A stretch of DNA of 64,000 nucleotides from IMG/VR virus record IMGVR_UViG_3300050645_000186, positions 13,147-77,146 of that record. One strand, 5' to 3'. The stretch is from a virus (Duplodnaviria > Caudoviricetes). The notes below the pieces were generated by a model. That model worked only from the letters and a program-made list of their open reading frames with translations, did no database searches and was not told the origin of the DNA. This document shows positions 21,718 to 32,741 of the stretch, piece by piece. Position 1 is the first letter of the stretch, and each line of letters starts with the position of its first letter. The position numbers and the translations under genes are program-made.

Positions 21718-22161
21718 ATGACTTTAGAACAAAAAGAAACCGTGTTCCAAATGCGGGATCAGGGGTTGAGCTATGCAGAAATAGCATCTGCCCTCAAAAT
21801 ATCCAGAAATACTGTGAAGTCTTTTTGTAGACGGAGTTCTCCAACATTAGAGAAAACGGCATTGGATAATAAGCAAGATATGCATGAAAATCACAGCCGT
21901 TGCAAGCAGTGTGGCACCCTGCTTATTACTCATGGGCACAGAGGGAAGCCGAGGCTTTTTTGTTGCGACGCATGCCGCCGTACTTGGTGGAAAGAGAACA
22001 ACAGCGATACACCAAACAGAAAGGCGTATTATCGCTTGATTTGTATGGGGTGCAAACAAGAATTCAAAAGCTACGGCAACAAGGCCCGCAAATACTGCGG
22101 GCATGCCTGTTATATAAGGAACAGATTTGGAGGAGGAGAGCATGACCAAAGAGCAGTTTGA
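21718..22161 (+). CDS. HTH + zinc-ribbon protein preceding the recombinase module
   Basis: GLSYAEIASALKISRNTVKSFCRR; CKQCG...FCCDACR; CMGC...KYCGHACY. Confidence 0.75.
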   Translation: MTLEQKETVFQMRDQGLSYAEIASALKISRNTVKSFCRRSSPTLEKTALDNKQDMHENHSRCKQCGTLLITHGHRGKPRLFCCDACRRTWWKENNSDTPNRKAYYRLICMGCKQEFKSYGNKARKYCGHACYIRNRFGGGEHDQRAV

Positions 22162-22303
22162 GCGGGAGAAGAACTACCGGGTGGCGCTTTCCATAGCCAA
22201 AACCATGCTCGCGCGCGGGCTGATCAACGAGAAGGATTACGCCAAAATCAACACGAAACTGATCGCCAAATATCGTCCCATTTTCAGCGGATTGTGCCGC
22301 TGA
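22142..22303 (+). CDS. Small SHOCT-like protein (53 aa)
   Basis: GGAGGAG RBS; MTKEQFEREKNY...GLINEKDYAKI. Confidence 0.7.
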   Translation: MTKEQFEREKNYRVALSIAKTMLARGLINEKDYAKINTKLIAKYRPIFSGLCR

Positions 22304-22360: not shown

Positions 22361-23695
22361 ATGGCAAGAAATATACGGATAATAGGGCCTTTATCGCCCG
22401 CAGCGCCCAAGAAAAAGCGCGTGGCCGCATATGCGCGGGTATCCAGCGGCAAGGACGCAATGCTCCACTCGCTCTCGGCGCAGGTCAGCTACTACAGCGC
22501 CTATATCCAACGTCAGCCGGGCTGGGAATACGCCGGTGTGTACGCGGATGAGGCGCTCACCGGCACCAAGGATGACCGCCCGGAGTTCCAGCGGCTGCTT
22601 GCCGACTGCCGGGCCGGGCAAATCGATATGGTAGTTACAAAGTCCATATCAAGGCTGGCAAGGAACACGGTAACTATGCTGGAGGCGGTGCGCGAACTCA
22701 GGGCGCTGAACATCGATGTGTTCTTCGAAAAAGAGAATATTCACAGTCTGAGCGGGGATGGTGAGCTGATGCTTACCATCCTCGCTTCTTTTGCGCAGGA
22801 GGAAAGCCGGTCGGTCAGCGAAAACTGCAAATGGCGCATCCGCAGTCGTTTTCGGGACGGCGAGCTGGTGGGCCTGAGTTATATGTACGGCTATCGCATA
22901 TGCAAAGGCGTGATCAAGGTTGATTTAGTCGAAGCGGCGGTCGTGAGGCGGGTTTTCCGGGATTGCATCGAAGGCATCGGCGTGGAGACGATCGCAAAGC
23001 GGCTCAACGAGCTGGGCATATCGCAGCGGCGCGGTGGCGAGTGGTCAGGGGCGCGCGTGCTGCACCTGCTGCACAATGAAAAATATACCGGCAACGCCCT
23101 GTTGCAAAAAAGCTACGTCGCCGACCACCTGACCAAGAAGGAACGCCCCAATAAAGGCGTACTCCCCATGTACTTTGCGGAGGGTACGCATCCCGCCATC
23201 ATCGACCGGGGCACATTCGATCGTGCGCAACGGCGGCTTGAAGCCAACAGGAAAAGCAACAACATTTCCAAAGATGCGCCTGCCAGATACCCCTTTTCCG
23301 GCATCATCCAATGTGATAATTGCGGGCAGAAATTCAAGCGCGTCGTGTGCCATGGCAGGCCCTACTGGCAATGCACGACGTATCTTCGTAACGGCAAGGC
23401 CGCCTGCCACACCAAACAGATACCCGAGCCTATTCTGCTGTCGCTTGCGGCACAGGCGCTTGGGCTTTCCGCTTTTGATGAGGCGGCTTTCAACAGCCAA
23501 ATCCAAGAGATGCGCATACCCGCGCACGATCGGGTGATTTTTGTGTTTCACGACGGCCATACGGCGGAGTGCGTATGGCAGGACAATTCGCGCCGGGATA
23601 GCTGGTGTGAGGAGAAAAAGCAGCAGGCGCGCCAGCGTCAGCTTGAATATATGGAAAAGGAGAACAGCCAATGCAACCAAACGCCGCAAGAGTAA
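22361..23695 (+). CDS. Large serine recombinase 1
   Basis: YARVSS catalytic Ser; VYADE; TKSISR; AQEESRS.SEN; recombinase domain; zinc ribbon CDNCG...C. Confidence 0.93.
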   Translation: MARNIRIIGPLSPAAPKKKRVAAYARVSSGKDAMLHSLSAQVSYYSAYIQRQPGWEYAGVYADEALTGTKDDRPEFQRLLADCRAGQIDMVVTKSISRLARNTVTMLEAVRELRALNIDVFFEKENIHSLSGDGELMLTILASFAQEESRSVSENCKWRIRSRFRDGELVGLSYMYGYRICKGVIKVDLVEAAVVRRVFRDCIEGIGVETIAKRLNELGISQRRGGEWSGARVLHLLHNEKYTGNALLQKSYVADHLTKKERPNKGVLPMYFAEGTHPAIIDRGTFDRAQRRLEANRKSNNISKDAPARYPFSGIIQCDNCGQKFKRVVCHGRPYWQCTTYLRNGKAACHTKQIPEPILLSLAAQALGLSAFDEAAFNSQIQEMRIPAHDRVIFVFHDGHTAECVWQDNSRRDSWCEEKKQQARQRQLEYMEKENSQCNQTPQE

Positions 23696-23888
23696 CCGTA
23701 ATCCCTGCGTATACGCGGCCTTCTAATACAGGGCCTGTGGGCCTTGCCTCAAAAAAGCGCGTGGCGGCATATGCCCGTGTATCCACCGATAGCGAGGAGC
23801 AGCTTACCAGTTATGAGGCGCAGGTAGATTACTACACCCGCTATATCAAGGAAAAGGACGAGTGGTCATTCGTTGAAGTCTATACGGA
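23671..23888 (+). pseudogene. Large serine recombinase 2, 5' fragment cut at VYT(D)
   Basis: RVAAYARVSTDSEEQLTSYEAQVDYY...WSFVEVYT then non-homologous AT-rich sequence where DEG is expected; the ORF-track frame to 24099 is a chimera. Confidence 0.85.
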
Positions 23889-23954
23889 AATAATAGTTCC
23901 CTATATGATACGGCTTCGTTTCCGGGATTTCGTTAAAGAATGTAAAAACCTTTT

Positions 23955-24133
23955 GATTTACAGACTTTCTCACACCGAGGGGTGTGCAAAGGTCCTATTT
24001 TTTTGCCCGCTATTTTCGACAGACTATTTTGAACGTGTGCAACTGAGTGTTCACGATGGTAATTTTGCACACCCTTACAACGATGAAGCCGTCCCGTAAC
24101 GATTTACAGGACAGTTCGTTATGAGGGTGTGCA
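23955..24133. repeat. Three TTAC(A/G)G(G)AC...GGGTGTGCA units; two form a 68-bp imperfect palindrome
   Basis: GGGTGTGCA at 23980-23988 (+), 24066-24074 (-), 24125-24133 (+); palindrome 24066-24133 centred on 24100-24103. Confidence 0.7.
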
Positions 24134-24163
24134 TATTGTGCTCTATAGAATAGAGTTGTTTTG

Positions 24164-24517
24164 CTATTCGCAAAGAGAATAAATTTTCGGCATACCGCCA
24201 GAATCTATCACCTTGCCAATTTCAATCAGCCCAAAAACAATCAACGCTCTAACATAAATGTAAGGAGTATCCGTATCGGGGTATAACACTTTCACATACG
24301 GTGCAAGATCATCAAACGAGCCGACACTGTAATTGCTACCATTGCTGTCGGAGACAGCATATGTGGCAGGGTCAAATTTCCCATAGAAATTTTTAACTGC
24401 ATATGCAAAAGCAAATTTTGCAGCAGATGTTCCGTGGTCAAATTTCCCCGTTGCGACCAGTTTATCAGCCACCTCGTTAGCGGCTTTTGATAAGCGGAAA
24501 TTTGTTATATCGTTCAT
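24164..24517 (-). CDS. 117-aa protein, PbeD/DndE-like by position and N-terminus
   Basis: GGAGG RBS; NFRLSKAANEVADKL...AAKFAFAYAV; last gene after the ATPase. Confidence 0.55.
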   Translation of the reverse strand: MNDITNFRLSKAANEVADKLVATGKFDHGTSAAKFAFAYAVKNFYGKFDPATYAVSDSNGSNYSVGSFDDLAPYVKVLYPDTDTPYIYVRALIVFGLIEIGKVIDSGGMPKIYSLCE

Positions 24518-24532
24518 ATCTGTCACCTCCAG

Positions 24533-26527
24533 TTATTGCAGTTCTATTGCTGTATGGAAAGAACCATACTTTCTCAGGCGATATTCTTTTTTGAGTGTGC
24601 TTCCTAAAACCTGTCTGGCGGTCTGCCCATCAATCTCATCAGTGTACGCCAAAAGAATGATCTGATCGGACATTAATGGCAGTGCCTTTGTTATGTTTTT
24701 CTTATGGGTTGGATCGAGACGTCCAAAAGGAGAATCCATTATAATAGGTCCGCTTAAGGGGGCGTTTTTGTGTAAAGCGCCAATCAACGACAGTGCCACA
24801 ATATGCTCAAACCCGGCAGAACGGAATGGTATTATTTCACCGGAACGATGTTGTATGGAGAGGCCATAGTTGTCATTAATTTTTAACGCTGTATAGTCAG
24901 GATCGCTGCTAATGTTGCAGAAAAGCTCTGTAGCATCACGTTCAACTTCCGCTTTTAGTTTGTCACGATATGCAGCGATGCCGTCGTTAAATAACTGATG
25001 GAGTGCTGCACAGATTTCAACCTTTTTTACTGCAAGATTTAAATCCGCATCAGAAGTACCTGCTTTCCGAACTTTTTCTTCAAGGCTTGCTAAAGCAATG
25101 TCGGCTTCTTTTATTTTATCCTTAGTTGCTTGAATACCTTCCTTTAGATTTTCAATCTTTGAATAGCACTTTGCCAAGTTTTGTGCATTCTCTTTTGCGA
25201 CAGCGGTGAGGTCACTTATATTTCCGTAGCGGCTAATCTCATCTCGCAAATCTTTGAACTGACCTTTTGCGTCATCAATCTGCACTAAGAGATCAGCCAG
25301 CTGATCCTCATAAACCTTGAGAACTTGGGCGTCTGTAGCACTCTGCATACTTTCCAAAGATGCCTGTCGGATTTGAAGAGTTTTCATGCGCCCGATTTCT
25401 TCGGTGGACAGTCCGCCAAATTCTCCTGGCTCTTCTTCAAGTCGCTTTTTAAGTGCAATTACGTGAGCTTCATCTACATCCTGGTTACAGCATTCACAAT
25501 GATGCGTTTCTACGATACGTTGAATATATGTCATAAGTCGAGCAACAGACTCATGCGTATTGTGCTTTTGCTGGAGAGTATATAGTTCAGACTTAACCTG
25601 AGATAGAATTTCAGAGGTTTTCTTGCCAATCACATATCTCCAGACATCTTTTGTCGCAACAACAATTGACTGTAAAAGGCCATCACGTGTAGCTTCTTTT
25701 GCAGCAATATCGCTCTCTAAATGCTCCATGTTCTGGATTAATGCTCTGAGATGCTCGTTCTGTTTTCCTTCGTCCTCAAGTTTTGCCCTGAGATTTTGCG
25801 CCTCCTCATATGCTGCTTGAAGCCGCACCAGTTCTTTTGTTTGCTCATCCTTCTTTGCCGTTTCCGATTCAATCTGTGCGGCATACTTTTCTGTCTGCTT
25901 ATTTGCCTGAGCTGCTTTTGTCTGTTCCTTGCGGTATTCGTCAAGGACAAAGGCAGTATCATTAGCGGCGCTTGTCAAAATGGGGACTCCTAAAATTGAT
26001 TCAATAGATTTCTTGATTTTTTCGCCGGCAGAAGTTTCATCTTTCACGAGTTCCTCGTATTCCTGAAGCAATTCACCATCGAATAGGAAAAATCGAGAAA
26101 CATCCTCTGGCATTATTAATGCCAGTTCATGTTCTTTATTTGGAGCAAAATGCCCATCAACCTTAAGAAAAACATCCTGAACATAGTCATCGTTCTTGGA
26201 AGGAACTGTTACACCAGAACGAACACTATATTGACGAGTAAGTTCATATTTTTTTCCATCGTGGAGCATTTTCAATACAACCTTAAAATCGTATTTACCC
26301 GCTTTCATTCCTTCTCGGTTCACCAATTTTAGAATATCTTCTACCGTCTCATGGCGGTATTGGAATCTGCCAAACAAGGCATAACGGAAGAGGTTCAGAA
26401 GCGTGGTTTTCCCATGTCCATTGTCTCCCCAAATAAGGGTAACACCATCCCCATCACCGAAGTCAATTGTCTGCTCACCTTCATAAGGGCCAAAATTATT
26501 GATGGTTATACTCGTAAACTTCAACAT
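24533..26527 (-). CDS. Rad50/SbcC/DndD-like coiled-coil ABC ATPase (PbeC-like)
   Basis: Walker A GDNGHGKT, FFLFDGE, coiled coils with central CECC zinc hook, signature SAG, Walker B IMDSPFGRLD. Confidence 0.85.
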   Translation of the reverse strand: MLKFTSITINNFGPYEGEQTIDFGDGDGVTLIWGDNGHGKTTLLNLFRYALFGRFQYRHETVEDILKLVNREGMKAGKYDFKVVLKMLHDGKKYELTRQYSVRSGVTVPSKNDDYVQDVFLKVDGHFAPNKEHELALIMPEDVSRFFLFDGELLQEYEELVKDETSAGEKIKKSIESILGVPILTSAANDTAFVLDEYRKEQTKAAQANKQTEKYAAQIESETAKKDEQTKELVRLQAAYEEAQNLRAKLEDEGKQNEHLRALIQNMEHLESDIAAKEATRDGLLQSIVVATKDVWRYVIGKKTSEILSQVKSELYTLQQKHNTHESVARLMTYIQRIVETHHCECCNQDVDEAHVIALKKRLEEEPGEFGGLSTEEIGRMKTLQIRQASLESMQSATDAQVLKVYEDQLADLLVQIDDAKGQFKDLRDEISRYGNISDLTAVAKENAQNLAKCYSKIENLKEGIQATKDKIKEADIALASLEEKVRKAGTSDADLNLAVKKVEICAALHQLFNDGIAAYRDKLKAEVERDATELFCNISSDPDYTALKINDNYGLSIQHRSGEIIPFRSAGFEHIVALSLIGALHKNAPLSGPIIMDSPFGRLDPTHKKNITKALPLMSDQIILLAYTDEIDGQTARQVLGSTLKKEYRLRKYGSFHTAIELQ

Positions 26528-26545
26528 AACAAACAACCCTCCTTA

Positions 26546-26737
26546 TTAAATGGTTACCGTCTTCAGAAAATCATCTATGACTTTCTGCGTATCATGTCTT
26601 GCCTTTGTCCTATCATCCTGAGACGAAAATTCCGCATTTACGATATCTTGAATCAATGATGCAGGTATTTTAGGCTGCTGCTTGGCTCTGATTTTTTCCA
26701 ATACGGAAATCAGTTCATTGATTTCGATGTTAGTCAT
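26546..26737 (-). CDS. 63-aa protein between helicase and ATPase (PbeB-like position)
   Basis: GAGGAGG RBS inside the helicase 3' end; start overlaps helicase stop; predicted helical. Confidence 0.65.
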   Translation of the reverse strand: MTNIEINELISVLEKIRAKQQPKIPASLIQDIVNAEFSSQDDRTKARHDTQKVIDDFLKTVTI

Positions 26738-28862
26738 TGTCATCATCCTCCTCAATTCCGGTGTTTTGTAAACTGTTGTAGTCGATCTGGTAATCAACGG
26801 CTATATTTTTCAAATCGGTAACACAGGCAGGGTTTTCTGCGCCTAAACCAAACTGAATCGCTCTTGATAATTCACCGATAATAATCGACATAGACTTTGG
26901 CGTTTCTTCAGATTCGACCACGGGAACCGTAATCGCATCATAAAGATGTGCGAAGAGCTTACCTGGTGAATTTCTTAGAATCCTACCTCTGCGCTGAATG
27001 AATTCTCTTGGATTCTGTGAAGACGCAAGAATCAAAGCGTGTGTGGTAGAAGGAATATCAATACCTTCATCCAAGCACTTAATCGAAACCAAGACGCCGC
27101 CGTTCTTAGAAAAGTATCGGAGCGTCTCGTCTCGATCACCTTCCATATCTGCATAGTATTCAAATGCATCAAAACCAGCGTCAATCGCACCGTTCAATAC
27201 ACTCTTTAACTGTGTGATATTGTCGCAATAGATAATCCAACTCTGGCCTACCACATATTCTCTAAGCAAGAGATTGATGGCCAAGGGAACTTTACCAGAT
27301 GCATTCTTGACAATACGCGCTCTGTTAATCAACAATTGCTTCAAGCGTGTGTTGGAGGTAATACTCGTATCTGAATTTCCATTAGCTTTCATACGAGCCA
27401 TAAGCTGACTTATCTGTTTTGTAATATCGTTCCATTCTTCCTGCTCATTTTGTGTGAGGGTAATGGTGAGTGGGTTATAAAAATACTTTGTTAAAACGCC
27501 GCTTTTTATTGCGTCATCCAATGTATAGGGTGGTGGTACGAGACCGCCAAAATAATCAAAGAGCGCAGACGTTCCTTCGGGATCTCCATATCTGCGTGGC
27601 GTGGCAGATAAGCCCAACCTTGCACCTGCATCTATATTTAAGGCGTTACGTCTCCGTGGGCTTCCCAATCTATGTACTTCGTCAGCCACGACAAACAGAT
27701 GATTACCATGCGATACATTTTTTACAAAATCATCTGAGCAGGCTGTATCCATAGTTGCAAGAATAATGCGATGAGTTGAACCTCCATCACTTGTCCAAGA
27801 TGCCAAAGTTCCGGGCTTTTTCCACTCGTTATTGTTATCCCCGCAAAGAAGATAGTATATTTTATCTTCGAGCAAGGTTTCCCTCAATTCTCGATCCCAT
27901 TGTTTTAATAGGTCTCTTGATGGGACTAAAATCAGTACGACTTCATTTCTCTTAAAAGCATCATGGATTGCACACATGGCAGTGAAAGTTTTTCCGCTGC
28001 CTGTAGCATGTTCAAAAATGCCTCGGCGATTATTCTTTACCCATGCTTCAAGGGCATTTACTTGATGCGGACGGGGTGTGCGGCTGCCAACATGATTACT
28101 TGGTTTCCACTTTTTTGCCTTGTTTTCTTCTACATGGATTTCATCCAGTAATTCGTGCCATTTTACTCCCTCCGCTTTAGTTCGTAATATTTCTTTAGAG
28201 GCACTCGGGAATTGATACACAATAATTCCTGAAACGGATTCTGACCATAGCTTTTCAAAAAATACTGATGCGTCATCAACTCGTTCGGCATCGCGGCTAT
28301 CGAGCCAATCCGGAAATACATCAATAGACTCCATGTTTCCATCGGAAGATAGTCCTCTGTACGTTTCATTCATTGAACCACGGAAGCCCACTTTATTACC
28401 ATCGGAATCCGTGAAAATACCGACTTTGTCGTGAAACAGTCTCCTTGCATTTGGTGATTCTTTGCCAGTTGGAACAGCGATTTTTACATCAATAATGCCT
28501 TTTGAAATCATATATGCAAGTAGCTTTGCTGGAGCAGATAAAAAAGGATCATCAAATAAGGTCTGCACTTCTTTTGCAAGCGACTCCGCGAGCAATTCAT
28601 CATTTTTCGCAGAGTAGCCATTAGCTAACGCAGTGGCATCTTCATCAGATACATACGGTGAACATATCAAGCGCATCTTACCATTGTTATCGATAAATTC
28701 CCGTAAAGCATCCCAGGCAATAATGTAGATTGTGCTTCCAAAATACCCGGAGATTCTATCGTAACGGCTTGAGTGCCTCATGCATGGAAGATAAAACATA
28801 TCAGCTATGTCATGCTCGGCCTTATTATAAGAAGTAAGATATGTTTGTTCCTTAAGACTCAT
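26730..28862 (-). CDS. PLD-family nuclease + SF2 (DEAH) helicase fusion (PbeA-like)
   Basis: HDKVGIFTD...GSMNET (HxK...GSxN); ATGSGKT; ADEVH; LSAT; LDEGIDIP; QRRGRILR. Confidence 0.88.
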   Translation of the reverse strand: MSLKEQTYLTSYNKAEHDIADMFYLPCMRHSSRYDRISGYFGSTIYIIAWDALREFIDNNGKMRLICSPYVSDEDATALANGYSAKNDELLAESLAKEVQTLFDDPFLSAPAKLLAYMISKGIIDVKIAVPTGKESPNARRLFHDKVGIFTDSDGNKVGFRGSMNETYRGLSSDGNMESIDVFPDWLDSRDAERVDDASVFFEKLWSESVSGIIVYQFPSASKEILRTKAEGVKWHELLDEIHVEENKAKKWKPSNHVGSRTPRPHQVNALEAWVKNNRRGIFEHATGSGKTFTAMCAIHDAFKRNEVVLILVPSRDLLKQWDRELRETLLEDKIYYLLCGDNNNEWKKPGTLASWTSDGGSTHRIILATMDTACSDDFVKNVSHGNHLFVVADEVHRLGSPRRRNALNIDAGARLGLSATPRRYGDPEGTSALFDYFGGLVPPPYTLDDAIKSGVLTKYFYNPLTITLTQNEQEEWNDITKQISQLMARMKANGNSDTSITSNTRLKQLLINRARIVKNASGKVPLAINLLLREYVVGQSWIIYCDNITQLKSVLNGAIDAGFDAFEYYADMEGDRDETLRYFSKNGGVLVSIKCLDEGIDIPSTTHALILASSQNPREFIQRRGRILRNSPGKLFAHLYDAITVPVVESEETPKSMSIIIGELSRAIQFGLGAENPACVTDLKNIAVDYQIDYNSLQNTGIEEDDDND

Positions 28863-29385
28863 ATGTACCTCCAAGTAGTTCTTCGTGCATGATATCCATA
28901 CGACGAATTATGGCATCGTACAAAAACTGAGGGCGAGCACATACAATACGCTCATTATTTTTTCTCGTTGTTTCAGATACCTTTGTGCAAAGAGCTTCAA
29001 CAATCACATCAGCCTTAACTTGCATATTGCAACTATATGCAAAATCAAGATGTTTTTCAGCATCCCAAAAAGCAAAAACAATATCTTCGCCGTCCCGTAC
29101 TAATGCACCAATAATAGGCATGCGCCCATCAGAATAGTCAAGATGTCCACGTTCTCCATGCTTTTGACCAGGAAGGATTATTTGAATCTTATATTCGCCT
29201 AAAGCACGACCGCCAGGAGGATTTGTGCAGTTCCATAAGTAAACACGCAGACGTAAGCTTCTTGGACATAAATCCACAAGAAGAGGAAATGATGTCGTGT
29301 CACTATGCCAAGTGACATGATCATCGAGTCCCTCAATGAAAATAGTATTCAATGCTTTTTTACTAAGTCTCTTTTTCTTTGCCAT
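28852..29385 (-). CDS. Uncharacterised 177-aa methylase-associated protein
   Basis: AGGAGG RBS; coupled to both neighbours; RVYLWN...EYKIQI...FAFWDA...S.NMQV...R.NNE resembles, from memory only, the methylase-associated X1 domain. Confidence 0.6.
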   Translation of the reverse strand: MAKKKRLSKKALNTIFIEGLDDHVTWHSDTTSFPLLVDLCPRSLRLRVYLWNCTNPPGGRALGEYKIQIILPGQKHGERGHLDYSDGRMPIIGALVRDGEDIVFAFWDAEKHLDFAYSCNMQVKADVIVEALCTKVSETTRKNNERIVCARPQFLYDAIIRRMDIMHEELLGGTYES

Positions 29386-30232
29386 TATCATGTCCTCCTG
29401 CGATAGAGCGAAGAAGAGAAGCCGCATGTTCTACATATTCTTCTACAACATCAAACCCAACAAAGCGCCGCCCGAGAGACAAAGCTGCATATCCTGTGGT
29501 ACCACTTCCCATCCAAGGATCAACCACTAAGTCGTTTTCTGCTGTTGTAGCTTTTATATATTTTTGTGGCAGATACAACGGCTGCGTGGCTGGATGGTCA
29601 TCAATTCGAGCCGATACCCCTCCGCTTATAATATTCTTTGGTAATGCGCCCAATGGGTTTGGGGCTATTCGTTTATTTTTGCGAACGTATGTGTTGCCGT
29701 TTGAACGGGGCTTGTATTCGTAGGTTTCGTATGTTTGAACACTATGGGATTCATAAGGCCTTCGTATTGCGTCAATATTTATTGTCCATTTAGAGGATTT
29801 TGAAAACCATAGATTCTGTTCATAAGCATCTTGGCAGGCTACCCGAAGTCCCGTGGGTACAGGATTCTCTTTTACCCAAATCTCGATATCAACACAATGC
29901 AATCCCCACGTTTCTTCCATTTCTATTGCGAGTTTTTCTATTACCAATGAACGTTTGGACGAACATTTGGATGTTGATTTCTCCCTGTTCGCTTTAACAT
30001 TTATCACAATAAAGCCATCATCGCGTAGTTTTAAACAAGCTGAATCCAAAAATGGTGACATTTTTCTTATATATTCAGACGATCGCCATACTCCATATTC
30101 ACGTTCTGCATTGGGATATGGAGGTGAACCATAAATGAGTTTTATGGATTTATCTGGAAGCAGAAGCATTCCTTTTGCGCCATCCATTCGTCGGACTGCG
30201 TAGTTGCTCTTATTTATCTCCTGTATTATCAT
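29363..30232 (-). CDS. Beta-class DNA methyltransferase B (SPPY; likely N4-cytosine)
   Basis: GSPPY; HPATQP; DPWMGSGTTG; FVGFD. Confidence 0.9.
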   Translation of the reverse strand: MIIQEINKSNYAVRRMDGAKGMLLLPDKSIKLIYGSPPYPNAEREYGVWRSSEYIRKMSPFLDSACLKLRDDGFIVINVKANREKSTSKCSSKRSLVIEKLAIEMEETWGLHCVDIEIWVKENPVPTGLRVACQDAYEQNLWFSKSSKWTINIDAIRRPYESHSVQTYETYEYKPRSNGNTYVRKNKRIAPNPLGALPKNIISGGVSARIDDHPATQPLYLPQKYIKATTAENDLVVDPWMGSGTTGYAALSLGRRFVGFDVVEEYVEHAASLLRSIAGGHDNGKEKET

Positions 30233-31136
30233 CGGCAACCTCTTCTTGTAAATCCTTTTCATATTGCAATCTCAGAGCGGCAAGACGGCAATAATCAGAA
30301 TTAGCATCAATGCCAATCCATATGCGGTTAAGTCGTTGTGCCACAGCAGCAGTGGTGCCAGAGCCTGAAAATGGATCGAGTACAACATCTCCTGCAGAAC
30401 TTCCAGCAAGAATAAAAAATTCTGCCAGTTTTTCGGGGAAACGTGCAGGGTGGCCAATTCCCTCTTCTTTACATAACTTCATAAAATAATCATTACTGCT
30501 TGTGTTTGCAATTTCAATTACTGTTCCAGGGTCTGAACCACCGTTATCGGTCCACACCTTCTCACAATCGAAATTATGTGTGCTGGGACGTGTATTGTAG
30601 TTTCGATCTCCCTTTCCTTTGCCCTGAAGATATTTTTTCATATCTTTACTGTACGGCTTTCTGATTGGATCCATATTAAATTCCCATGTGTCACCCTTTG
30701 CCAACCAAAAGCAATATTCGTGTGATTTTTTAGTGCGACCATAACCTCCCCTAGAATATACATTTGGAGGAGTCGCAGGATTATACCATATATAGTCGCG
30801 TACAAGATGAAACCCAATTTCTTTACATAATTTCAATAAAAGCTCAAATACATATAGGTGCTGAAAGTTATCTACAACTTTATCGCTGATATTAAGAACG
30901 AAACTGCCATCGTCCTTAAGGATCCGATGCATTTCCCTTGCTTTTGGAATAAACCAATCAACATATTCATCAGGTGGAATCGTGCCATCTACATCGCCAT
31001 AATCACGTTTATCTGCATAGGGAGGAGATGTTAGTATAAGATCAATACTCGAATCTGGTATAGTTTGTAAAACAGTTTCACAGTCACCACATATAAATTT
31101 ATCACGAAACGTGTTTAGCGTTTTTTTCTTTTTCAT
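30210..31136 (-). CDS. Beta-class DNA methyltransferase A (SPPY; likely N4-cytosine)
   Basis: GDC; LTSPPY; HPARFP; DPFSGSGTT; WIGID. Confidence 0.92.
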   Translation of the reverse strand: MKKKKTLNTFRDKFICGDCETVLQTIPDSSIDLILTSPPYADKRDYGDVDGTIPPDEYVDWFIPKAREMHRILKDDGSFVLNISDKVVDNFQHLYVFELLLKLCKEIGFHLVRDYIWYNPATPPNVYSRGGYGRTKKSHEYCFWLAKGDTWEFNMDPIRKPYSKDMKKYLQGKGKGDRNYNTRPSTHNFDCEKVWTDNGGSDPGTVIEIANTSSNDYFMKLCKEEGIGHPARFPEKLAEFFILAGSSAGDVVLDPFSGSGTTAAVAQRLNRIWIGIDANSDYCRLAALRLQYEKDLQEEVADDNTGDK

Positions 31137-31138
31137 TG

Positions 31139-31381
31139 TTACACCTTTTCATTTTCGTTATTAAGTTGCTCTTTGTCATCCAATGAAATTTCCATTATAT
31201 CCGAAATATCACACTTAAGCGCATCGCATATTTTCAAAAGCACATCGGTCGTTAGATTTTCATTTTTTGATAGCTTTGCCATAGAAGCAGTACTAATACC
31301 TGTCGCTTCTCGCAAGTCTTTTCTTTTCATATCTTTATCAATTAAAAGTTTCCAAAGCTTTTTATAACTGACAGTAGACAT
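31139..31381 (-). CDS. Xre/Cro-type HTH regulator heading the operon (controller-like)
   Basis: SYKKLWKLLIDKDM...ISTASMAKLSKNE...LLKICDALKCDISDIM. Confidence 0.88.
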   Translation of the reverse strand: MSTVSYKKLWKLLIDKDMKRKDLREATGISTASMAKLSKNENLTTDVLLKICDALKCDISDIMEISLDDKEQLNNENEKV

Positions 31382-31622: not shown

Positions 31623-31997
31623 ATGGAAATTGGAAATAAATCCTTTGGTGAATTACTTACTTTTTTCAGAGAAAAGAAAGATGTAACATTAAGGGAACTG
31701 GCCAGAGGGATTGGCGTTTCCGCACCATTCTTAAGTGATGTTGAAAAAGGAAGGCGCGCTGCCTTGACAGCTGAGCGCATAGAAAAGGTTGTTGTTGTTC
31801 TGCATTTAGATGAAGAGGAAGCAACAGCCCTGTATAATGCAGCCGGGAAACAGAAAAACTCAATTCCTCCAGATTTACCGGAATATATTATGGAACATGA
31901 GTACGTCAGCGCAGCTCTTCGCACAGCCCGCGATCTTGATGCAAGCGAGGAAGAATGGCAGCGATTTGTGGATGATCTGAGGAGGCGAAAAGGATAA
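31623..31997 (+). CDS. Xre-family HTH repressor (ImmR/CI-like)
   Basis: FGELL..FRE...TLRELARGIGVSAPFLSDVEKGRR. Confidence 0.9.
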   Translation: MEIGNKSFGELLTFFREKKDVTLRELARGIGVSAPFLSDVEKGRRAALTAERIEKVVVVLHLDEEEATALYNAAGKQKNSIPPDLPEYIMEHEYVSAALRTARDLDASEEEWQRFVDDLRRRKG

Positions 31998-32000
31998 GGC

Positions 32001-32741
32001 ATGTTTAAACCAGAATTGAGGTATTCTAATACCGGAATTCCTATAATATCAAACGCAGAGATTGATACAATAGGAGAACGAATGATAGTAGATTTTGATA
32101 GTTCTTCTTTATTTAATCCGCACGCAATTGATATTGAAAGATTTGTAGACAAATACCTAAAAATGCCGATTGAATTTATGTACTTATCTCACTGTGGTGT
32201 TTATCTTGGCACGACAGTATTTCAGACGACAAATCGTCTTCCCATTTACATTCCAGAAGAAAATCGAGCAGATTATGCTCATGTAGAGGCTGGCACAATT
32301 GTAATTGATGGCAGTCTTGATAGTGAAAATCAAGAGCATCGTCTGCGTTTCACACTCGGTCATGAAGGCGGACATGGCATTTTTCACCCATCCTATTTTC
32401 TTAATACAATAGGTTCCAGTGAGAGAGATAACACTGGAATATATGTGAGATGTCGTTCGGATTTTAAGGCATCTTGGCAAAATCTCAATGGCTTTCATAA
32501 TATGTCTGATGCCGAACGAGTTGAACAACAGGCTAATCGCTTTTCTGCTGCTGTTTTAATGCCTAAAAGTGCTGTTAAAATTCTACTTGCAGGAAAGCCG
32601 TATGACGGGACGACGGAGTGGATTATTTCTTCGATGACCCAGATTAGCGATACTTTTAACGTTTCTAAAGAAGCAGCTTTTTATCGTCTAAAGGGACTTG
32701 AAATTATAGATGATTATAAAAAAATACCAATTGTAATGTAA
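32001..32741 (+). CDS. ImmA/IrrE-family metallopeptidase
   Basis: RLRFTLGHEGGH (HExxH); EQQANRFSAAVLMP. Confidence 0.88.
   Translation: MFKPELRYSNTGIPIISNAEIDTIGERMIVDFDSSSLFNPHAIDIERFVDKYLKMPIEFMYLSHCGVYLGTTVFQTTNRLPIYIPEENRADYAHVEAGTIVIDGSLDSENQEHRLRFTLGHEGGHGIFHPSYFLNTIGSSERDNTGIYVRCRSDFKASWQNLNGFHNMSDAERVEQQANRFSAAVLMPKSAVKILLAGKPYDGTTEWIISSMTQISDTFNVSKEAAFYRLKGLEIIDDYKKIPIVM

Follow-up and report, generated by a model that had tools for sequence, protein, structure and literature searches.

Genes and features of the locus

The window, as we call the whole 64,000-nucleotide stretch of DNA analysed here, is the final 64 kb of an IMG/VR provirus record (G000, 1-77146), and it contains the recombination module of one phage, prophage 1, directly followed by the left part of another, prophage 2. 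The features of this locus are the following:

21718-22161, + strand: small HTH protein of prophage 1, 147 aa, opening its recombination module (Pfam Sigma70_r4_2/HTH_23)
22127-22303, + strand: SHOCT_2 protein of prophage 1, 58 aa (Pfam PF20612, E 1e-22)
22361-23695, + strand: recombinase 1, an intact large serine recombinase of 444 aa, A-type (Resolvase, Recombinase and Zn_ribbon_recom)
23671-23888, + strand: recombinase 2, 5' fragment comprising 72 codons and GA, which forms the B arm of attL (Pfam; 86% identity to the N-terminus of the homologue P0002)
23671-24099, + strand: hybrid frame P0001, 142 aa, the recombinase 5' fragment reading on into the phage end
23887-23888, no strand: GA crossover dinucleotide, bases 1-2 of the Asp codon (the sole bases common to all junctions and the attP contig L136)
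23889-23911, no strand: P' arm of prophage 2, 17 bases and then TGATAC (exact or near-exact in every left junction)
23889-24163, no strand: conserved non-coding left end of prophage 2 (kept in G001, G002, L086-L089 and L136)
24164-31381, - strand: low-GC, defence-type cargo operon of eight genes (Pfam; gene calls of L097-L104 and L129)
31623-32741, + strand: lysogeny module of prophage 2, an XRE-type HTH protein (31623-31997) and an ImmA/IrrE peptidase (Pfam Peptidase_M78; HTH_3 and Peptidase_M78 in L129)
33175-64000, + strand: conserved body of prophage 2 with replication, packaging, head and tail genes, ending at a tail-gene stop codon (Pfam calls of L090)

A SHOCT_2 gene is also located upstream of the recombinases in prophage 2 and in other targeted prophages, and the counterpart of the 147-aa HTH protein in the prophage 2 module has 141 aa. 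The frame of recombinase 2, which opens with the ATG at 23671, shares 25 bases with the end of recombinase 1, and its N-terminus (…KKRVAAYARVSTDSEEQ…WSFVEVYT) is typical of large serine recombinases. The gene reads normally for 72 codons up to GAA GTC TAT ACG GA, and is followed from 23889 by AATAATAGTTCCC. The break thus falls between the second and third base of the Asp codon (after its GA) in the Y-x-D-E-G motif of recombinase 2, where the left end of prophage 2 starts; recombinase 1 reads GVYADE at the homologous position. On the 142-aa frame, Pfam recovers the Resolvase model at positions 1-43 of 145 only, and around 24 kb, just beyond the break, the GC content declines from 54% to about 40%.

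The interruption of recombinase 2 at this point, first described in a sequence-only reading of the window, is read directly in the frame, and the identical 142-aa hybrid frame is found on contigs of three further assemblies (JGI 3300050334 and the Logan assemblies SRR17288841 and SRR17288840). The stretch 23528-27500 is also spanned, with zero differences, by a contig from run X2, a further sample of that study. The presence of the identical junction in other assemblies (four in all) shows that it is not an assembly artefact, and it is not a product of chance either, because the sequence on its right is joined, always at this codon, to at least eight different recombinase genes (see below).

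Both ends of the source record coincide exactly with gene boundaries, its 5' end lying inside the ImmA/XRE module of prophage 1 and its 3' end being the stop codon of a prophage 2 tail gene. The window therefore stops at this codon because the record was trimmed at gene boundaries, and, as the trimming falls on the last base of the window, nothing past 64000 is readable there. The possibility that the far end of prophage 2 lies inside the record was thus ruled out; in the whole record, no Resolvase or Recombinase domains were found besides those of recombinase 1 and the recombinase 2 fragment. The idea that everything downstream of the break is a second prophage in complete order was right about the second phage and wrong about its completeness, since the holin, lysin, cargo and recombinases lie beyond the window. 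The record is rated 100% complete, yet it contains parts of two phages, neither of them whole ("one and a half phages"), and this fusion under a rating of complete is of relevance to provirus callers.

Body and cargo of prophage 2

From 33175 on, prophage 2 shows 92-95% nucleotide identity to two other viral contigs from IMG/VR, G001 and G002, and roughly 9 kb between the left end and the lysogeny genes is swapped for different cargo among contigs. As the body is conserved and the adjoining 9 kb or so is replaced, the break corresponds to the phage's own left end followed by a variable cargo bay. The eight genes of the window's operon encode HTH_26, two N6_N4 methylases, MTaX1, a PLD-helicase, a 63-aa protein, an AAA_23 ATPase and a 117-aa protein. 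Other defence-like genes occupy the bay in relatives (G001, G002, L136 and L137), among them a YgjP-like gene and one for an 868-aa protein in L136, and C5 methylase, HhH-GPD, AAA_15, MC2 and CTD6 genes in L137.

The 567-aa tail protein encoded in the last 1.7 kb of the window is residue-for-residue identical on many ENA and Logan contigs, which continue with an ABC-transporter insert, holin, GH25 lysin, cargo, HTH, SHOCT_2 and two recombinases; one of them (L095), running on toward the recombinases, comes from sample SRR17288841. The ABC transporter and an ArsR-type regulator are located between the tail and lysis genes (L090 11761-13881). Between the lysin and the recombinases lies a 5.5-kb cargo composed of DUF5320, DUF134, NifB-like, two CbiA, Lactamase_B, Mrp and flavin reductase genes (L090 15776-21264). 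An interpretation of the DUF5320, CbiA and flavin-reductase genes as host DNA, which would give prophage 2 a right end without recombinases, was rejected, as they are phage cargo preceding the recombinase module.

This module has the same layout as that of prophage 1, namely the small HTH protein, SHOCT_2, and two large serine recombinases, here called LSR-A (517 aa) and LSR-B (525 aa; sizes from L134), each with Resolvase, Recombinase and Zn ribbon domains in Pfam. Downstream of LSR-B follow a 71-aa HTH protein, GmrSD, a 201-aa protein, GNAT and a 48-aa frame. In most copies, but not in L117, SHOCT_2 and LSR-A are separated by an IS110 (L110 10774-12003), which might affect recombinase activity. 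Prophage 2 has a size of roughly 55-57 kb and is very probably a temperate siphovirus-type phage of Clostridia with Oscillospiraceae/Eubacteriales-like hosts.

The far end of prophage 2 and the rejoined recombinase 2

Contig L134 carries, in this order, LSR-A, LSR-B, HTH, GmrSD, the 201-aa protein, GNAT, the 48-aa frame and a phage right end reading …GCGATAACC-GA, as also on L135, after which comes CGAGGGCATTTCC… (encoding DEGISATNTK). Across contigs, the right end reads …TTGTATCAATTATGATGCGATAACC-GA, and the flank after the GA varies by contig. The partner of the 72-residue fragment was searched for with residues 73-529 of P0002, an intact 529-aa homologue (86% identical to the fragment). This search retrieved P0121, a protein of 470 aa that starts with 13 residues from the phage P arm and continues as DEGISATNTKHRDGF…, and whose gene directly follows LSR-A, LSR-B, GmrSD, GNAT and the phage end. 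P0121 is recorded in exactly two assemblies, SRR17288841 and SRR17288840, which are the two Logan assemblies with the window's left junction, one of them probably the source of the window itself.

When window positions 23671-23888 are joined in silico to L134:6968-8339, a frame of 529 codons with a single terminal stop is obtained, which aligns to P0002 (529 aa) without gaps, at 84% identity both to the left and to the right of the joint. Because the joined halves align gaplessly, the insertion is exact and only GA is duplicated. The right junction is seen on separate contigs (L134 and L135) rather than on one contig continuous with the window, and the remainder, the last 457 codons of the gene, has an estimated position some 17-19 kb beyond the window end. 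The expected arrangement at the far end, the recombinases of prophage 2 followed by a 3' remainder starting with DEG, is therefore present on both contigs, which come from junction-carrying samples. The closest intact homologue is P0002, at 84-86% identity, and no uncut copy of the window's own allele was found. Among the assembled contigs (as opposed to the raw reads) of four runs, neither an empty recombinase 2 site nor the attP of this phage was present, a result that has no bearing on excision.

Behind the recombinase 2 remainder, an OLD-type ATPase (AAA_15 and TOPRIM) and a UvrD-type helicase form a Gabija-like pair (L134 8578-11329), after which comes a palindrome similar to those at the right ends of related phages. 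The pair is probably end cargo of prophage 1, and the palindrome probably its right end. The OLD/UvrD cargo mirrors the GmrSD/GNAT cargo at the equivalent position of prophage 2.

Relatives in IMG/VR that share the tail protein (L077, L079, L080, L082 and L084) were rejected as guides to the right end of prophage 2, as they carry other recombinase modules. In L077, L079, L080 and L082, the tail genes are about 90% identical, yet the two-recombinase module is different. These four phages end in a palindrome with a 20-bp stem (L077 13400-13546, L079 15450-15574, L080 11250-11310 and L082 16790-16905), after which comes ...TATATGGT and then either the 3' end of a tRNA gene, of which there are two different ones, or other DNA. 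The loop of the palindrome is inverted in L080 relative to L077 and L082.

Attachment sites and target motif

Taken together, the two phage ends define an attP of the form GTATCA-N17-GA-N17-TGATAC, about 50 bp long and with imperfect inverted symmetry around the core. This symmetry is limited to the outer hexamers, and a search for a P arm that would simply be the P' arm in reverse complement found none. L136, a contig of a related element, contains exactly GTATCA-N17-GA-N17-TGATAC with cargo genes on both sides, an arrangement that is an unintegrated attP or possibly a head-to-tail joint. The GA is the only sequence common to 13 types of left junction and 11 types of right junction, with no longer target duplication, and its suggested role as the core is borne out by every junction examined. 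The same limits delineate a deleted derivative of 3.75 kb (L089), found on one metagenome contig, which has both arms, a GA at each end, and is inserted in bacterial DNA.

Three exact GGGTGTGCA boxes (at 23980, 24066 and 24125) lie within 154 bases inside the left end (region 23980-24133), out of four exact copies in the whole 64-kb window, and similar boxes lie about 60-90 bases inside the right end (L135 about 4906). Over the whole window the motif is not enriched (12 matches against 13.6 expected), and only the local cluster of three exact boxes stands out. Located outside the roughly 50-bp core attP, these boxes could be candidate binding sites for accessory proteins.

In recombinase targets, the bases to the left of the GA follow roughly G-N-N-R-T-N-T-W-Y-R-C-N and those to the right Y-N-A-N-G-G-N-A-T, the shared bases corresponding to the codons of (V/I)(Y/F)x-D-x-G-I. 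Near-consensus sites occur in the genes for LSR-A and LSR-B as well, the one in LSR-B reading …ATCTACACG-GA-CGAAGGAATC….

Recurrent insertion into recombinase genes

The 35-mer to the right of the break occurs exactly in G001 and G002, where it adjoins different recombinase genes at the same codon; both end in …GIFA before the break and differ in nucleotides, and both contigs likewise end short of the right end. Further flanks were collected by scans of genome and metagenome collections and by look-ups with the 117-aa protein, whose gene is located immediately within the element. Eight of the 13 distinct left-flank types are recombinase genes cut after (Y/F/V)-x, the other five being a DNA methylase gene cut after …VDCIYI, three other DNAs and the phage's own other end. 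On the right, recombinase remainders starting with D(E/Y/D)G(I)(S/T)G make up seven of the 11 distinct junction types, next to a methylase remainder starting with DPPYNTG and three other DNAs. The two methylase halves are complementary, as L086 ends in …VDCIYI and L132 starts with DPPYNTG, giving …CIYI-D-PPYNTG.

We also surveyed hybrid frames, taking the 35 database proteins of at least 124 aa whose 70 C-terminal residues are encoded by the P' arm, a count that is biased toward in-frame coding targets. Recombinase N-termini from several subfamilies, cut at the same codon, account for 31 of these 35 and cover the phage A type, the phage B type and the YCRLSRDD transposon type; the remaining four are a methylase, two other proteins and one attP frame. 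This survey bears out the view that the conserved Y-x-D-x-G codons of recombinase genes serve as attB. Of the junction types seen in the DNA itself, about two thirds fall in recombinase genes and about a third outside, and the specificity for this target is therefore a preference and not absolute.

The targeted recombinases belong to very different elements (Mob_Pre/RepA_N islands, Rep_trans islands, prophages and lone fragments), and some are A-type and B-type genes of similar prophages, that is, close relatives. Near-identical phage ends thus adjoin many distinct target gene clusters, including recombinase subfamilies, the methylase gene and other sites, and a related junction is carried by a cultured isolate, Caproicibacter sp. 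BJN0012 (CP142518.1), whose left junction is located at about 346 kb.

Two sets of contigs display variation beside the right end. In L119 (6725) and L123 (6725-11357), the right end is joined to one host region at points separated by 3-4 kb, within a gene for a sulfur transporter in L119 and ahead of a 207-aa gene in L123, which looks like a deletion or re-insertion beginning exactly at the GA. In L120, L124 and L125 (6569-8104), the T run of the right end is one base shorter and its TGA is lost, with the result that the 48-aa frame of the phage reads into the recombinase remainder and gene callers give a "recombinase" of 506-511 aa whose N-terminus is foreign. Just the final 1.4 kb of the phage is present in L120 and L124.

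Integration model and alternative explanations

In the model that we propose, prophage 2 would integrate by means of its own large serine recombinase or recombinases, through attP x attB recombination in which the strands cross over at the GA that begins the Asp codon. Its preferred attB would be the DNA encoding (Y/F)-x-D-x-G-I-S-G in the catalytic domain of serine recombinases, represented here by the second recombinase gene (B-type, 529 aa) of the resident prophage 1, which is now split. We regard this model as a whole, from the use of the recombinase motif as attB to the splitting of recombinase 2 of prophage 1 by prophage 2, as highly probable. LSR-A and/or LSR-B are the presumed catalysts at the GA, because three-domain recombinases, a 2-bp core, a symmetric attP and conservative rejoining are all found here, and their neighbours, the genes for the 141-aa HTH, SHOCT_2 and 71-aa HTH proteins, are candidates for directionality factors. 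The insertions are codon-specific and share only the GA, unlike those of Mu-like transposable phages, which use a DDE transposase, insert almost at random and duplicate several bp of the target, and no DDE-type transposase of its own was seen in the gene calls for the phage body, the IS110 being a separate insertion.

An alternative origin for the 23671 fragment would be an attP located inside the phage's own recombinase gene, the fragment then being the normal right end of prophage 1 or the result of swapped 5' ends. Such a reading is favoured by the relatives L077, L080 and L082, which have an intact second recombinase and no third recombinase fragment behind it. However, the relatives of this type carry a different recombinase module, beside tRNA genes or other non-recombinase DNA. 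Moreover, both junctions have non-recombinase DNA on their phage side, with a non-coding P' arm and a P arm located 3.5 kb downstream of an intact LSR-B, behind the GmrSD and GNAT cargo, and within the record no phage left end has a recombinase 3' part; we thus consider this origin extremely improbable. A deletion, rearrangement or chimeric assembly could also have fused a truncated recombinase to unrelated DNA with no site-specific insertion, and the trimming of this metagenome record at gene boundaries, the rearranged DNA that can adjoin the left end in L089, and the deletion beside the right end suggested by L119 and L123 would all be compatible with such events. Nevertheless, four assemblies share the junction, dozens of different flanks all break at one and the same codon and adjoin an identical phage base, and the two halves of recombinase 2 fit to the codon. 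A deletion or assembly join, which had been named as the outcome that would speak against a site-specific insertion, is therefore refuted as the source of this junction, and a fusion of this kind has next to no probability.

Even with a real insertion, the motif may be no more than a neutral, widespread landing site, a portable safe harbour borne by other mobile elements, in which any disabling of prophage 1 is a side effect. This explanation, to which we give about the same weight as to its negation, agrees with the very different elements that carry the targets, with the use of pseudo-sites in the methylase gene and in intergenic DNA, and with the near-consensus sites in the phage's own recombinase genes; the targeting of Fic-domain DNA by TndX has been explained likewise (PMC4430133). 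On the other hand, the targets within close relatives, in A- and B-type genes of similar prophages, would also suit competition between phages. Disabling or trapping of the resident, a form of phage-on-phage parasitism, is plausible. That the use of the motif has evolved in order to cripple competitors, with a rival prophage, ICE or IME locked in the chromosome until the invader leaves, seems to us rather doubtful. The neutral explanation and parasitism fit the data equally well and differ only in the selective advantage that they assume. If crippling is indeed the advantage, the nucleophile-less fragment with DNA-binding domains could interfere with the rival's relatives, and the invader would gain an attB in any host with such elements.

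Predicted consequences of the insertion

The insertion separates recombinase 2 into a 72-residue piece with the catalytic serine region and a 457-residue piece with the DNA-binding domains, and the right end of prophage 1 would be displaced by some 55-57 kb. In this state, prophage 1 is predicted to be unable to excise, and the excision of prophage 2 would restore recombinase 2. Both recombinases are needed in the CcrA and CcrB pair; if the same holds for prophage 1, it would by analogy stay trapped for as long as prophage 2 is present.

In the usual account, a serine integrase picks one host gene. As the relatives of prophage 2 insert in many recombinase genes, the phage lands in a conserved motif of an enzyme on which other mobile elements depend for their movement, and, this motif being essential to every serine recombinase, the target travels on other mobile elements. 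The chemistry is that of an ordinary serine integrase, with a GA core as in TndX, whereas the evolved target is unusual. Such insertions explain why prophages occur in tandem or nested in Clostridia of the gut and of digesters, predict that residents are immobile for as long as the invader occupies them, and provide a natural instance of mobile elements in conflict with, or hitch-hiking on, one another. For integrase engineering, they offer a well-defined attP and a degenerate attB fixed by coding constraint, with dozens of natural variants.

Comparison with known systems

The clostridial elements Tn5397, with TndX, and Tn4451, with TnpX, share with this phage the GA core, the preference for a conserved domain as target and the use of secondary sites. 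TndX crosses over at a central GA, and prefers Fic-domain DNA in addition to using secondary sites (PMC4430133). In contrast to the TndX and TnpX elements, the present phage has roughly 55-57 kb and a two-gene recombinase module, and targets the catalytic domain of serine recombinases. DUF4368 is present in 63% of the multi-targeting, transposon-type clade of large serine recombinases (PMC10083194), and a Pfam scan found none in LSR-A and LSR-B; the spread of near-identical phage ends over many distinct target gene clusters is a trait shared with this clade. The same survey of targets reported enrichment for magnesium chelatases, competence, secretion and HNH genes "among others", and a word search of its text and supplements found no resolvase among the enriched targets (PMC10083194).

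ICEs of the Tn1806 family, which have triple serine integrases, target the methyltransferase genes hsdM and snf2-MTase, and some of these methylase targets lie inside other ICEs, producing nested composites (PMC12942858). The present phage resembles them in its occasional insertion in the DPPY motif of a methylase, but the Tn1806-family elements have a different core, for which 4-bp repeats (TGGG/GGGA) are reported, and another target family, and are conjugative elements rather than phages. In the full-text literature we found no description of a phage or element with a serine-recombinase motif as its regular attB, a weak result given that most subscription journals are outside this scope. The sole precedent found for a recombinase gene as landing site is the ICE Tn7740 of Clostridioides difficile, a single case with no motif and with other, unrelated sites, whereas here the same codon is used in at least 15 clearly different recombinase genes and both att arms are defined.

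Among prophages that split genes by means of serine integrases are SPbeta in spsM, skin in sigK and A118 in comK, and SprA/YokA, the integrase of SPbeta, ranks with the nearest solved structures. These systems are similar to prophage 2 in that a phage with a large serine recombinase resides within a coding sequence, where its precise excision would reconstitute the gene. In contrast to SPbeta, skin and A118, which occupy single host genes, the target here is a gene family carried on other mobile elements, and the "host" of the insertion is another prophage.
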